From contig CAZPIZ010000004.1 in assembly GCA_964586615.1 (NCBI GenBank), positions 1 to 27,906 of the forward strand: a stretch of 27,906 nt of DNA, written 5' to 3'. This DNA is from an uncultured Acidimicrobiaceae bacterium. GTDB taxonomy: Bacteria; Actinomycetota; Acidimicrobiia; Spongiisociales; ZC4RG35. The translations under genes and the position numbers were made by a program. Below, in pieces: positions 3,486-7,771 of the stretch (position 1 is the stretch's first letter; each line of letters starts with the position of its first letter). The notes beneath the pieces are model-generated. The model was not told where the DNA came from and searched no databases. It was given only the letters and a program-made list of their open reading frames with translations.

Positions 3486-4103
3486 TCAGCGGCGAAGCTC
3501 TGGGATGTGACGATTGAGGGCGTCGAGAACCGCTCGGACCACGGCCCGGCTGCTTTCTCCGTTCACGAGGGAAGACCCGACCATGAGCCGCTCTTTCCCT
3601 TCGGTGACCATGACAACTTGGGCTATCGCCACGGGTCTCGAACCGAGGACCGGGATGTCGACGGCGGCGACCCCGATGGCCGTTGTTTCCTGGAGGGCCT
3701 GGCGCAGGGCCTCGATCGTGGCTTCGGCGACCAAGCGGTTGCGGGTCGTGTGAGCTGCTGCTCCCGCCACCTCTCCAATAAGAGTGTCGCCTTGCCAACC
3801 GAGCGTGACCACCACATTGGTGCGGTTGCCATCCACCTGTTCGGACACATCGATGATGACCGGCCGGTCGCCCTGTGCAAGATCGGGATCTGGCAATTGC
3901 ACGACCGAGACCACCCGGCGATCAATGGAGAGGCCGAACGCGGCCTGAGCCAGGCTTTGCACGTCTCGAACGGTCTGTTTGGCCGCCTTGTTGAGGCCTG
4001 TCAGGATATGAACTTCGGTGATAGTCCCGGCCTCTGTGACCACGCGGGCGGCTTCAACTCCGGGCAGCCGGCGTACCTTCTCCTCAAAGTCGCGGAGGTT
4101 CAC
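3486..4103 (-). CDS. Conserved-looking hypothetical protein (205 aa), first gene of an operon with GGT and the phosphatase
   Basis: Clean ORF. GTG start is 6 nt after TACGCT (4115-4110), and there is a 1-nt gap to the GGT start. The C-terminus AVVRAVLDALNR loosely recalls LeuA allosteric-domain helices (inference). Confidence 0.8.
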   Translation of the reverse strand: MNLRDFEEKVRRLPGVEAARVVTEAGTITEVHILTGLNKAAKQTVRDVQSLAQAAFGLSIDRRVVSVVQLPDPDLAQGDRPVIIDVSEQVDGNRTNVVVTLGWQGDTLIGEVAGAAAHTTRNRLVAEATIEALRQALQETTAIGVAAVDIPVLGSRPVAIAQVVMVTEGKERLMVGSSLVNGESSRAVVRAVLDALNRHIPELRR

Positions 4104-4131
4104 GGTCGGAGCGTAGCCGCCGCGGACGGTG

Positions 4132-4143
4132 GTGACATGTCAC
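4132..4143. promoter_or_regulatory. Perfect 12-bp palindrome GTGACATGTCAC, candidate operator between divergent promoters
   Basis: Seen directly. It overlaps the expected -35 positions for the minus-strand -10 TACGCT (4110-4115) and the plus-strand -10 TACGAT (4162-4167). Confidence 0.5.
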
Positions 4144-4251
4144 TTAAAGTGTTACGGTCTATACGATGGCGGGGCAACGAGGCCGGTATCAGGTCTTGTT
4201 GGCCCTACCCGCGGCCGGTAATCTTTACCGTTCTGTCGGGCTGAGTCATTG

Positions 4252-4349
4252 GGTTGTCGTCCGGTCGCAGGGCCGGATGGCGAGAGGGGCCTTACCTTGA
4301 CAACCAGAGTTCCCGGATCAAACCGGGAACGCGCGGGGAAAACCCGGCG
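4252..4349 (+). ncRNA. Candidate structured leader RNA upstream of the small peptide ORF (family unassigned)
   Basis: Stems: GGTTGTC(4252-4258)/GACAACC(4299-4305); GTCCGGTC-GCAG-GGCCGGAT (4259-4278); GTTCCCGG-ATCAAA-CCGGGAAC (4309-4330); CGGG-GAAAA-CCCG (4334-4346). Confidence 0.35.
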
Positions 4350-4451
4350 ACATGCCCTGAGGCCAATTGTTTAATCACCCCAGCGGAGCGGATCGGGTCC
4401 ACCTGGTTGTTAGCGGCCACGGTGAACCTAAAAACGAAACTTGGTGATCGC

Positions 4452-4541
4452 ATGAAGGGCAAGCTCGTTCGGATCGTTGCTGCTCTGGGAAGCCTGACGG
4501 CATTGATCGTTGCTGGTTCTGCCTCCCTCAAGATTGGCTGA
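4452..4541 (+). CDS. 29-aa signal-peptide-like small protein MKGKLVRIVAALGSLTALIVAGSASLKIG
   Basis: ATG at 4452 inside the track ORF 4254..4541, preceded by SD-like GGTGAT (4443-4448). Basic n-region, hydrophobic h-region, short polar tail. Lies 58 nt before the HD-GYP gene. Confidence 0.7.
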   Translation: MKGKLVRIVAALGSLTALIVAGSASLKIG

Positions 4542-4599
4542 ATGGAATGTCGCCGGTTCCCCGCCCCAAGGCGCTAGAAACTCCCAGGACTCAAATTAG

Positions 4600-5946
4600 A
4601 TGACAGGTAACGCCCGACGACGCTTCTTGCTCGCGACCGGCTATGTGCTGGCCGGCCTCAGCGTGCTCATGGCTGCTGCCGTATTCGACGGCAGATTCCC
4701 GTCGTTCTGGCGTTGGCTTTTGTTTGCCATTGCCTTTGCCGTGCTTGAGTACAACTCGGTCGAGGTCAACGATCGTCTCTTCCAGAGCTCCTCGGTGATG
4801 GTGGCCCTGACCGCTGGGATCGTGTTTGCCCTCGAAGGCAGCTCCGCGACATTGGGCCTGGCCGCGTTGGCTGCCCTCGGTCCTCTGCTTCCAGCCGATC
4901 TGCGTGAGCGTCGCTGGTTCCAGCCGATGGCCAACATGGGTCAGCTGATCGTTTCCGCCGGTGCTGCCGGGCTTGTGCTCGACCTCATGCTGAAAGACGT
5001 TGGCATCGTCACACGGGCCGATGTCGCCCGGATAGTTGCGGCTGGAATTGTTGCCTCCATCGCCTACACGGTTGTCAACTGGCAGCTCGTTCGGATCGCG
5101 GTTCGAGTGGTCTATCGGACACGCGATGTCGTTCCGTGGTCTCGGATGACGGTCGTTCTCTCCTCCCTCTTCACCATGGGAATAGTCGGTGGCTTGCTTG
5201 GAACGACAATCGTTCTGGTCGCGCCAGCTGTGACACCGCTAATACTTGTTGTGTATCTCATCGGCCATCTTTCACTTTCGTCCTACGCTCAGCTTCGCGA
5301 GGCCCACGAGGCCACGTTGCGTGGTTTTGTGAAGGCGCTCGAGGCCAAGGACCTTTATACGAGGGGCCACACGGAACGGGTGGCATATTTCGCCCAACTG
5401 GCCGGTCAGGAGCTTTCCTTTTCGGGCACCCAGTTGGAGCGCCTTCGTTGGGCGGCGCTCATACACGACGTCGGGAAGCTGGCAGTCCCCGGCGAGCTCA
5501 TCCGAAAGAAGGGGCGACTCTCGCCCGACGAGTACCTCGATATGAAGTCCCACGCCCACCTCGTGGAGGAGATACTGGCCGAGGTCGAGTTCCTCCAGCC
5601 GATGGTTGAGATCGCCTCCAGCCATCACTCGCACTACGACGGTTCCGGCTATGGGGGGCGCGGCCATCGCTCGGGTTCCCAGCCGAGCCTCGAGAGCTGC
5701 ATTCTGGCGGTGGCCGATGCCTTTGACGCCATGACCTCGACCCGCAGCTACCGCATGGCCCTCACCCAGGAGTTTGCGATCGAGGAGCTCCGCCAGCACG
5801 CCGGCACCCAGTTCCACCCCGATGTAATCGATGCCCTCGAGCGGGGCTTGCAGAAGGTGGGGGAGACGTATGGATCACATGACGTAGATGACGAGGAACT
5901 TGCCCGGCGCCTGGCCGAACAACAGGTGGTCGATGAGACCGTCTGA
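4600..5946 (+). CDS. Membrane-anchored HD-GYP domain cyclic-dinucleotide phosphodiesterase (motifs largely intact)
   Basis: About 230-aa multi-TM N-terminus, then EAKD, H257, H289-D290-x2-K293, H318, HH342-343, DGSGYG (GYP variant), D373 and TSTRSYR. Confidence 0.88.
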   Translation: MTGNARRRFLLATGYVLAGLSVLMAAAVFDGRFPSFWRWLLFAIAFAVLEYNSVEVNDRLFQSSSVMVALTAGIVFALEGSSATLGLAALAALGPLLPADLRERRWFQPMANMGQLIVSAGAAGLVLDLMLKDVGIVTRADVARIVAAGIVASIAYTVVNWQLVRIAVRVVYRTRDVVPWSRMTVVLSSLFTMGIVGGLLGTTIVLVAPAVTPLILVVYLIGHLSLSSYAQLREAHEATLRGFVKALEAKDLYTRGHTERVAYFAQLAGQELSFSGTQLERLRWAALIHDVGKLAVPGELIRKKGRLSPDEYLDMKSHAHLVEEILAEVEFLQPMVEIASSHHSHYDGSGYGGRGHRSGSQPSLESCILAVADAFDAMTSTRSYRMALTQEFAIEELRQHAGTQFHPDVIDALERGLQKVGETYGSHDVDDEELARRLAEQQVVDETV

Positions 5947-7183
5947 AGCCACTCCGGAGTCGGTCTGGCAGCGACTGGCGCCACCGATCCTTGGGGCCAC
6001 CATGGCGGCGCTGGCACTCTCCTATACCTCCTCGCCGCTGGTTTACATCGTCCTCGGGATCCTCAGTCTGGCGGCCGGAGCGCAGCTTGGAGTGCCTTCC
6101 ACCAATGGTCGCCGGTTCGGGTTGCCAGTGGCGATTGGTGTTGCTGCTCCGATCTTCCTGGTCGAGGGCAATCAAGTCGACCTGCCCTCGGTGTTGGTGG
6201 TCTATGGCGCCGGTATGGCAATCGGAGGTTTGATCTTCTCGATTCGGCCCACCTCGAAGGCCGACTCGTCGGTGCTTCGATCGCTGATCGGGATGACTAC
6301 CTACGCACTTGTCTTCAATCTGCTGCTCCGATCGGAGGCGGTGGAATCCATTGAGCAGGGTTGGCGGGTTCTTGTCCCCTTGGTGATCGCAGCCACGATC
6401 TGGCTCCTGGTCGACACGTTGATCTGGGTGTTCATCGAGGCTGGTGGCGACTTCCGAGTGCACACTCTCGTCTCGGGCCTTTCCGGCGATCTCAACGTCT
6501 TCGTCAGCCTGGTGGCTTCGGGTGCCCTTTTCGGCTTGAGCTACAAGACGCTCGGCCTGCTGGCGTTGGGGGTGGCCGGGCTGCCATTCATCTTTGCTCA
6601 TTCGGCCTTTGCCCGTTTTCAGCAGATCAAGCGCACCTACCGCCAAACGATCAGGGCCCTGGCCCGGATCCCGGAGGTTGCGGGTTTAGGGGTGGAGGGC
6701 CACGCCGATCGCACCGCCAATCTTGCTTTGGCGGTCGGCCGGGAGATGGGGTTGACCCGCTCCGACATCGATGAACTCGAGTACGCCGCCCTGATGCACG
6801 ACATCGGACGGATCACATTGACCGAACCCGGCATCATCAGGGTCGGATACACCGACGACGACATCGCTCGCTGGGGCGCCGAGATCATCTCTCAGGCTCC
6901 TTACCTGGAACGCATCGCCGATCACGTTCGCCGTCTACACGAGCCGTACCGCAAACCGGGCGAGCAAACCGACCCGACCATCTCGACGATTTCGAAAATC
7001 GTTCGGGCTACCAGTGCGTACGACCATCTGGTGGTGGAGCGTGAGCTTTCAGCCCTACAGGCAATCGAGGTCCTCCATCAGGGTGCTGCCTACGACTTTG
7101 ATCCCTACGTCGTGGCGTCAATGCGAAGGGTGCTTGATCGGCGGATGGCGTTTCATCCAACATCGGCCAAGACCCGTTCCTGA
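5933..7183 (+). CDS. Membrane-anchored degenerate HD-GYP/HD domain protein
   Basis: Likely ATG at 5933 (after AGGTGG, overlapping the upstream stop) rather than 5888. Multi-TM N-terminus. Keeps GH..R, HDIG and FDP but lacks HHE..DGxGYP, and the last metal Asp is replaced (TSAYD). Confidence 0.82.
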   Translation: MRPSEATPESVWQRLAPPILGATMAALALSYTSSPLVYIVLGILSLAAGAQLGVPSTNGRRFGLPVAIGVAAPIFLVEGNQVDLPSVLVVYGAGMAIGGLIFSIRPTSKADSSVLRSLIGMTTYALVFNLLLRSEAVESIEQGWRVLVPLVIAATIWLLVDTLIWVFIEAGGDFRVHTLVSGLSGDLNVFVSLVASGALFGLSYKTLGLLALGVAGLPFIFAHSAFARFQQIKRTYRQTIRALARIPEVAGLGVEGHADRTANLALAVGREMGLTRSDIDELEYAALMHDIGRITLTEPGIIRVGYTDDDIARWGAEIISQAPYLERIADHVRRLHEPYRKPGEQTDPTISTISKIVRATSAYDHLVVERELSALQAIEVLHQGAAYDFDPYVVASMRRVLDRRMAFHPTSAKTRS

Positions 7184-7186
7184 GGT

Positions 7187-7771
7187 CTAGTGGCGCGAGG
7201 CCGACCCGGCCTGGGCCCTGGCCCCTCGCTTGAACCAGCGAATGGGGCGGCGGAGTTCGAACTCCACGAAACGCCCCAGACCCACCGCCAGGAACACATC
7301 TCCAAGTGACAGGACCTGGCCGTAGTTGGCGATCCGGATCGGGATCACGTCCGCCAGGAAGACCAACCTCGACGCCTCGTCCAGCACCACATGCTTGAAG
7401 CCCTCGGCGATCACCGGGGCACCCGGGGCAAATCCGGAGGCGACCTCGGCGGCTTCGGTCAGAACGGGCATACCTCCGTTGAGGGCGATGACCGTGAAAT
7501 TCATCAGGACGCCGAGGCCGGCGAGCCAGAGGCCCGGTCGGTCACGGTTGATGACGACCAGTACCACCAACAGTAAGTAGCTCAAGAGGATCAGCGCCAC
7601 TCCCCAGTTGGCGGCAGAGCTCGGGATGAACTGGGCGCCGATCTGCAGGATGAAACCGAGGGGCAACAGCCACCAATGGTTCAGGTGGATATCCCCCAGG
7701 TTGACCATCCGTCCCCCGCGCAGAATCGCGATGGCCATAGATAAGAACAAAACCATCGCAAGCCATAGCAT
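7187..7771 (-). CDS. DUF5317-like multi-TM membrane protein
   Basis: LRGGR N-terminus, GVLMN..IALNGGMPV, FLADVIP and SLGDVFL motifs recognised as DUF5317-like. TACCGT lies 6 nt upstream of the ATG. Convergent with the HD-GYP pair, stops 3 nt apart. Confidence 0.8.
   Translation of the reverse strand: MLWLAMVLFLSMAIAILRGGRMVNLGDIHLNHWWLLPLGFILQIGAQFIPSSAANWGVALILLSYLLLVVLVVINRDRPGLWLAGLGVLMNFTVIALNGGMPVLTEAAEVASGFAPGAPVIAEGFKHVVLDEASRLVFLADVIPIRIANYGQVLSLGDVFLAVGLGRFVEFELRRPIRWFKRGARAQAGSASRH

Follow-up and report, generated by a model that had tools for sequence, protein, structure and literature searches.

A conserved 29-codon micro-ORF within a structured leader precedes the genes for membrane HD-GYP-type proteins in Acidimicrobiales

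Introduction

What is the function of a 29-codon open reading frame that directly precedes the genes for multi-TM HD-domain proteins? In the stretch of DNA analyzed here (the window, 27,906 nucleotides of a contig from an uncultured Acidimicrobiaceae bacterium), a gap of ~500 nt between a minus strand gene coding for a 205-aa protein and the plus strand gene HD1 is occupied by a micro-ORF, MKGKLVRIVAALGSLTALIVAGSASLKIG with the stop codon TGA, at positions 4452-4541 of the plus strand (ATG at 4452, TGA at 4539-4541). This locus raises the question of whether the micro-ORF is a gene at all and, if so, whether it is the peptide, the act of translating it, or both that matter.

Several known systems provide points of comparison. 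KdpF (kdpFABC), CydX (cydABX) and MgrB, which acts on PhoQ, are small single-pass membrane proteins that are encoded beside their membrane partner. The mRNAs of hok/sok-type type I toxins exhibit 5'-3' fold-back pairing by which hok and tisB are silenced. Among peptide signals, AgrD-type precursors have an amphipathic leader, and the active part of Phr and SHP peptides is the C-terminal end. To our knowledge there is no microprotein partner of a multi-TM HD-GYP/DUF5317 module. Finally, the ppe2 leader of M. tuberculosis contains a riboswitch-linked uORF that must be translated for downstream expression, which occurs via termination-reinitiation (PMC11260477).

Results

The micro-ORF was searched for with a six-frame HMM, with a degenerate DNA pattern and with a 30-column profile that includes one upstream codon. 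A preliminary description of this locus had made its reading depend on conservation, and the ORF is indeed conserved: the six-frame profile search recovered an ORF of the same length from 123 of the 301 genomes of the order, representing 52 of 99 genera and 10 of 12 families, usually as one copy per genome. Note that the unpublished genome G038 contributes to the genome tallies only, and to no sequence or specific claim. The carriers are Acidimicrobiia MAGs wherever they are named, and in 400 genomes sampled from the phylum there was a single match outside the order, which was at chance level. Among about 185,000 species genomes the degenerate DNA pattern matched 23 loci, 22 of them labeled Acidimicrobiia and one Actinomycetota. 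A DNA search of 40 relatives matched the entire intergenic region within the genus and the micro-ORF stretch only in other genera of the family, with all matches exhibiting an ORF of identical length that ends with K[IV]G-stop and that has GGTGAT or a close variant ahead of it. Pfam and NCBIfam have no family for the peptide, and public databases already hold members as a 29-aa 'hypothetical protein' (e.g. GIU91780.1).

The substitutions among these ORFs follow a coding pattern. The set comprises 59 distinct ORF sequences that code for 52 distinct peptides; entropy by codon position is 0.92, 0.54 and 1.51 bits, respectively, and substitutions show a period of 3 and include many synonymous changes, with frame, start and stop kept in all 59. 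Omega, estimated from 1102 well-diverged pairs, is ~0.20 in the micro-ORF, the same as in the HD-GYP domain (0.20) and lower than in the HD1 TM domain (0.34); these values are approximate as dS is near saturation. At the peptide level, A21 and A24 are invariant (52/52) and G22 is present in 49/52, K or R is retained at positions 2, 4 and 7, exchanges in the core are conservative (I/L/V/M/A/T), and the C-terminal tail [SNT]-x-[KR]-[IV]-G is conserved with position 26 alone varying. Furthermore, every member of this TM form is without indels from R7 to the stop. On this pattern the micro-ORF is almost certainly a real coding gene and, as judged from the alignments, it is an undescribed micro-gene family of Acidimicrobiales that is selected at the protein level.

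Metatranscriptome contigs of close relatives from three independent studies cover positions 4320-4566, which is consistent with transcription, but DNA carry-over is also possible. These metatranscriptomes are from sediment and freshwater sediment, and their short contigs span the 3' half of the leader together with the micro-ORF. One contig continues into a relative's spacer towards HD1.

Regarding translation, the micro-ORF is preceded by a Shine-Dalgarno sequence, GGTGAT (4443-4448, plus strand), that sits 4 nt before the ATG and is complementary to the 3' tail of 16S rRNA. Variants of this sequence are kept in about 60 loci, with relatives showing GGTGAT, GGTGAG, GGTGGT or GGAGG 5-13 nt before the start. 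The peptide has an n-region with three basic residues within positions 1-7 (K2, K4 and R7), a 13-residue h-region and then the small-residue run A-G-S-A-S, with a mean Kyte-Doolittle hydropathy of 1.98 over a 19-residue window. Translation and hydropathy thus agree with the n/h/c layout and the GGTGAT element that had been described previously. The TM span, the positive-inside N-terminus, the purifying selection and the fixed synteny are, at the sequence level, those of a small membrane protein. The n/h/c layout with small residues at -3/-1 also conforms to a Sec/signal-peptidase-I pattern, and A-G-S-A-S, which is the most conserved part of the peptide, would fit a signal-peptidase-I site equally well. 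No passenger domain was found after this site, where five residues remain.

The earlier suggestion that V-A-G-S is a Cys-to-Ser mimic of a lipobox did not survive the comparison. A lipobox reads [LVI][ASTVI][GAS]C and is cut before the Cys by signal peptidase II, and both Lgt and signal peptidase II require the Cys thiol. Cys is absent from all 52 distinct peptides, with position 23 being S in 39, A in 10 and G, T or V in one each, and thus the peptide is not a lipobox substrate. There is also no mature lipoprotein, as only six residues follow S23 and the motif always ends its protein. Specifically, there were 30 matches with E values up to 0.001 among 1.84 billion representative proteins, and in each the match was C-terminal, indicating that the motif is never the signal peptide of a larger protein. 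The proposed resemblance to AgrD-type precursors likewise fails: a search of the window's genome (86% complete) for AgrB (PF04647) found none, the ORF stops six residues past S23 with ring residue and acidic tail absent, and the C-terminal residues are conserved. For a pherotype-like signal the tail had been expected to vary next to a conserved junction, and it is instead conserved.

Two ways of extending the reading frame were rejected. A longer in-frame reading from a TTG at 4254 is not conserved, with relatives having stops 2-8 codons before the micro-ORF ATG. Fusion of the micro-ORF to HD1 by readthrough or frameshifting is countered by a TAG immediately before the HD1 ATG and by spacers that are not multiples of three.

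The gene downstream of the micro-ORF, HD1 (4600-5946, plus strand), codes for a membrane-bound HD-GYP phosphodiesterase of the cyclic-di-GMP type, with a multi-TM N-domain and a HD-GYP-type domain (HD_5/HD) identified with Pfam. It is followed by HD2 (5888-7183, plus strand), which codes for the second multi-TM HD-domain protein of the cluster, by a convergent gene for a DUF5317 membrane protein (7187-7771, minus strand; Pfam) and, beyond that, by genes for enoyl-CoA hydratase and sortase. Upstream, the gene for the 205-aa protein (3486-4103, minus strand), which has no Pfam family, always points away from the leader, with gamma-glutamyltranspeptidase (GGT) encoded beyond it. The order GGT(-), 205-aa gene(-), leader, micro-ORF(+), spacer, HD1(+) and HD2(+) recurs in about 60 loci, with a leader of ~300-350 nt, a micro-ORF-HD1 spacer of 4-90 nt and HD1 always next downstream of the micro-ORF. 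A scan of 4050-4700 for promoter and terminator consensus sequences found none, and no intrinsic terminator separates the micro-ORF from HD1. HD1 has no Shine-Dalgarno sequence of its own in the window's genus, and when spacers were folded as single sequences, no hairpin that would sequester the RBS was consistently seen over the HD1 start. Pfam and NCBIfam also have no family for the N-domains of HD1 and HD2 or for the 205-aa neighbor, and a literature search gave nothing relevant on a small protein partner of HD-GYP proteins or on DUF5317. A predicted complex of the HD1 TM domain (residues 1-240) with the micro-ORF peptide, run without controls, scored 0.29, below the mark of 0.32, and speaks neither for nor against an association.

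Several additional features of the neighboring genes were observed. The HD-GYP motif of HD1 reads GYG, not GYP. HD2 scores far lower than HD1 on HD models (HD_5 E values of 1e-6 versus 6e-30) and may be a degenerate partner. The model of the 205-aa protein (pLDDT 88) has repeated beta-beta-beta-alpha units, with its best structural matches being the regulatory domains of M. tuberculosis LeuA (leucine-binding) and of citramalate synthase, and with weaker matches to dsRBD/S5-like folds. To go by this model, the 205-aa protein may be a small-molecule- or RNA-binding regulator of the adjoining leader. A conserved -10-like TACGCT (TANNNT) is located on the minus strand at about 4110-4118 of the window, a few bases before the GTG of the 205-aa gene, and this position suggests that its mRNA is leaderless. 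Leaderless mRNAs are common in Actinomycetota.

The region ahead of the micro-ORF is an apparently structured leader (4287-4451, plus strand) that is conserved in blocks throughout the order, as seen in a conservation profile of 58 loci and in alignments. It contains a hairpin with a TTGACAA loop at 4297-4303, a hairpin GTTCCCGG/CCGGGAAC at 4309-4330 with arms that covary and loops of variable size, an invariant and apparently single-stranded segment AGCGGAGCGGATC at 4382-4394, and a CACC..GGTG hairpin that precedes the micro-ORF Shine-Dalgarno sequence. Rfam has no family for the leader or the micro-ORF when the window and the loci of 10 relatives are searched. The leader, which continues on to 4566, is a candidate for a new cis-regulatory RNA ahead of a HD-GYP operon.

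A long-range helix connects the leader with the region just past the micro-ORF. Its 5' strand, GCGGGGAAAACCCGGCGAC (4333-4351, plus strand), is complementary to 4549-4564 and is located ~100-130 nt upstream of the micro-ORF ATG; its 3' strand, GTCGCCGGTTCCCCGC (4549-4564, plus strand), begins 8 nt past the stop. Support for this helix is provided by duplex energies, compensatory changes and an MFE fold. Specifically, the best cognate duplex of leader and post-stop sequence averages -37.3 kcal/mol in RNAduplex over 57 distinct loci, versus -28.3 for non-cognate pairs, -26.2 for shuffled partners and -26.1 kcal/mol for pieces of the HD1 gene. The helix is also present in the MFE fold of 4283-4612 (z = -2.25), where pairing starts 2 nt past the micro-ORF stop, and in about 57 loci pairing usually begins 1-5 nt after the stop. 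Both strands co-vary, as for example in GGAGGUGGUGGAACCCGGG with CCCCGGGUCCACACCUCC at locus L090 and GAGGAGGAGUACUCGGGACGG with CCGCCCGUCCCGAGUUCCUC at locus L098. In the helix columns of a plain MAFFT alignment, 65% of the cells pair versus 38-48% with slid partners, and there are 86 double-change cells versus 27-41 with slid partners. RNAalifold recovered only three pairs of the long helix from this plain MAFFT alignment, which is not structure-aware, and for this reason we rely on the comparison of cognate with non-cognate duplex energies and on the column counts. In about 57 loci the helix thus lies next to the micro-ORF stop, and it shows compensatory changes; this is the structural arrangement expected of a regulatory uORF.

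The helix appears to extend inward. A leader box, GGCCAATT (4361-4368, plus strand), pairs with codons 28-29 and the stop, within the conserved end of the micro-ORF that comprises codons 27-29 and the stop, AGATTGGC TGA (4531-4541, plus strand), and that is kept where the core of the ORF is lost. Compensatory cases are GCCAAU:AUUGGC at locus L001, UCAACC:GGUUGA at L012 and CUGCCC:GGGUAG at L035. This inner helix is less certain than the outer one, and together the two form a predicted composite long-range stem that encloses the micro-ORF including its stop codon. A different candidate for pairing with the micro-ORF end, the invariant AGCGGAGCGGAUC, was rejected, as it matches at merely 6/7 positions with a constant G-G mismatch and cannot covary.

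The HD1 TM domain is present in 215 of the 301 genomes, whereas the TM-type micro-ORF is present in 123. Where HD1 occurs without a match to the micro-ORF profile, the leader, helix, Shine-Dalgarno sequence and start remain and it is the ORF that differs. The ORFs of five such lineages, g35, g13, g20, G042 and f9, are hydrophilic, frameshifted or split, with [KR][IV]G-stop kept. In genus g35 the ORF has 25-28 codons with a hydrophilic, fast-changing and sometimes frameshifted core that ends with ..A[YT]TA[NS][ST][RK]IG-stop, in g13 it carries a frameshift, and in g20 it reads MSRNHPSLPVCRVCRPRWTEVSLKIG-stop. In family f9 there is an ORF of 10-18 codons that is joined by an ATGA or GTGA stop/start overlap to a second ORF of six codons, M[ST]WR[IV]G-stop, which ends at the usual place at the foot of the long-range helix. 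A [KR][IV]G-stop translation end at the helix foot thus appears to be universal, with the TM sequence seemingly unneeded there. In f9 the paired tiny ORFs were observed about 200-330 nt upstream of HD1 orthologues (loci L109-L114). The ORF at the G042 locus (L071) is frameshifted and has 15 nt duplicated in tandem (GTAACACGAAGATCG twice), which leads to ..AGNTKIGNTKIG-stop in another frame; this decayed copy belongs to a nearly complete genome with an intact HD1.

These lineages bear on the function of the peptide in two ways. First, since they keep the cis parts without the TM sequence, the purifying selection observed elsewhere argues for a function at the peptide level. Second, since no fewer than four or five lineages have lost the TM form and retain an intact HD1, HD1 as such does not require the peptide. 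The peptide is thus dispensable in g35, g13, g20, G042 and f9, yet the other lineages maintain it with an omega of about 0.2. All genomes in which the TM form was found have HD1 and, except for two fragmentary MAGs, DUF5317, which overall occurs in 213 of the 301 genomes. Family f9 has HD1 in 38 of 41 genomes and both the TM peptide and DUF5317 in 0 of 41, and g13 and g35 retain DUF5317. The joint absence of TM peptide and DUF5317 in f9 is a single evolutionary event, and as such is only a lead. The preliminary description had offered, as an alternative, that the intact peptide is a TM regulatory subunit of a HD-GYP complex. The TM span, selection and synteny fit such a regulatory role, most likely that of a modulator and not of an obligate subunit, given that HD1 persists without the peptide.

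Discussion

We tentatively favor a dual role for the micro-ORF, namely that it is a helix-opening uORF coupled to HD1 and that in most lineages it also codes for a single-pass membrane peptide. The comparisons demonstrate conservation, coding-type selection, fixed synteny and a covarying helix; from the RNA anatomy we infer the cis role, from the selection the trans role of the peptide and, beyond these, its membrane insertion, its partner and the direction of its regulatory effect. In cis, the last two codons of the micro-ORF, its stop and the next 20-30 nt would be the 3' side of the long-range helix, so that a ribosome finishing the micro-ORF would have to open the stem by which the leader domain is closed just ahead of HD1. 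Expression of HD1 would then be coupled to translation of the micro-ORF, either via unmasking or via termination-reinitiation. In trans, the peptide would be a 29-residue, N-in/C-out single-pass membrane peptide. Its N-terminus is basic, its hydrophobic span of 19 residues has faces of small residues (G13-A17-A21-S25), and its short, conserved tail would be on the outside. The peptide would stay uncut in the membrane and most likely act on the polytopic proteins HD1/HD2, and possibly on DUF5317, as a modulator that they can do without and not as an obligate subunit.

A more elaborate form of this proposal, which we regard as unlikely, is that the locus constitutes a riboregulatory module of Acidimicrobiales with a possibly ligand-sensing leader, a helix that includes the stop codon, and peptide feedback on HD-GYP/DUF5317. 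Termination at [KR][IV]G-stop would gate translation of the 7TM HD-GYP phosphodiesterase, and the released 29-residue peptide would feed back in the membrane, such that a 90-nt gene would be both switch and subunit.

A purely cis-acting uORF, where translating to a fixed stop matters and the released peptide is functionless, is a possible explanation that we nevertheless believe is probably not the correct one. It would account for a long-range helix that abuts and includes the micro-ORF stop, for the absence of indels from R7 to the stop in TM-form members, for the retention of start, stop and last codons in lineages with degenerate or split ORFs and for HD1 being without a Shine-Dalgarno sequence in the window's genus. 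There is also a precedent in the Mtb ppe2 uORF (PMC11260477), and perhaps a nascent ..[KR][IV]G slows termination. However, a functionless peptide is difficult to reconcile with an omega of about 0.2 over codons 2-24 and with TM-type substitutions and a basic N-terminus kept over 52 genera, all the more so as the cis role, judging from the degenerate lineages, is independent of the TM sequence and as ordinary coupling uORFs are without peptide conservation.

It is improbable that the peptide is an exported signal, with signal peptidase I cutting after A24 (or S23) and freeing a 5-6-residue S-x-K-I-G that a receptor such as the 7TM domain of HD1 would detect outside the cell, in a Phr- or SHP-like rather than an AgrD-like manner. 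The canonical n-h-c layout, the nearly invariant small residues at -3/-1, the conserved C-terminal tail and the adjoining multi-TM protein of sensor type would all be expected of such a signal. However, the 'mature' part would have five residues and the motif is never N-terminal in a longer protein, the tail is constant across the whole order, unlike that of pheromone families, and there is neither an AgrB in the genome nor an adjoining RRNPP-type receptor or dedicated exporter. In addition, the last codons persist in lineages that have lost the hydrophobic part and are paired with the leader, which gives their conservation an explanation at the RNA level.

Even less credible is a membrane-active peptide unrelated to HD1, either type-I-toxin-like or pore-forming, with an mRNA silenced by 5'-3' pairing. 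A 29-residue hydrophobic peptide with a basic end, and a long structured 5' UTR with a long-range helix around the ORF, do resemble such systems, but the micro-ORF is inherited vertically as a single copy in strict synteny with HD1 throughout the order, versus the patchy, often multi-copy occurrence of type I loci with their antisense RNA antitoxins, and its Shine-Dalgarno sequence is located in an A-rich stretch outside of the helix. Finally, a chance ORF within a structured non-coding leader can be dismissed for practical purposes, for although the ORF lies in conserved RNA with long-range pairing, and the gene-free stretch of the window is without a strong GC3 signal over 90 nt, period-3 variation, abundant synonymous changes and preservation of frame, start and stop in 59 distinct sequences speak against it.

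Compared with known systems, the micro-ORF with its putative dual role has both familiar and unfamiliar traits. Like KdpF, CydX and MgrB, its product is small (about 26-50 residues in this group) with one hydrophobic span and a positive-inside N-terminus, and its gene is the first or an adjacent gene of the partner's operon, with a role that would be accessory and not catalytic. Unlike these proteins, to which it has no sequence relation, it has no Pfam or NCBIfam family, its putative partner is a multi-TM HD-GYP/DUF5317 module, and its gene is located within a long-range RNA helix. With hok/sok it shares a small ORF for a hydrophobic peptide that is enclosed by long-range mRNA pairing; it differs in being single-copy and syntenic, in being followed by an enzyme gene with which it is apparently co-transcribed, and in having the Shine-Dalgarno sequence outside of the helix, and nothing in the data hints at toxicity or at an antisense RNA. 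A tiny ORF, a basic N-terminus and a hydrophobic body are also features of AgrD, Phr, SHP and ComS precursors, but here there is no Cys/thiolactone site, acidic AgrB-recognition tail, AgrB or neighboring RRNPP receptor, and, in contrast to pherotype-variable pheromones, the tail is conserved over the whole order. The ppe2 uORF is also an actinobacterial short ORF within a structured leader (PMC11260477), whereas the leader described here has no Rfam family, the micro-ORF appears to be enclosed by a covarying helix including its stop, and its peptide is under purifying selection in most lineages. Thus, what would set the micro-ORF apart from KdpF, CydX and MgrB as well as from ppe2 is the combination of both roles, with the stop codon located inside a long-range helix.

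Most micro-genes of this size go unnoticed or stay 'hypothetical', and yet here is one with selection as strong, order-wide, as that on the catalytic domain of the downstream enzyme. If the dual role is correct, the micro-ORF would be a concrete case of a bifunctional small ORF, where translation is tied to a long-range helix and the product is a conserved membrane peptide. Lineages that have kept the RNA and lost the peptide constitute natural 'knock-outs' for comparison. The host order comprises abundant Actinomycetota of soil, sediment and freshwater that are almost without genetics, and for these organisms the locus may provide a first handle on the control of membrane-bound HD-GYP (cyclic dinucleotide) phosphodiesterases and DUF5317 proteins.
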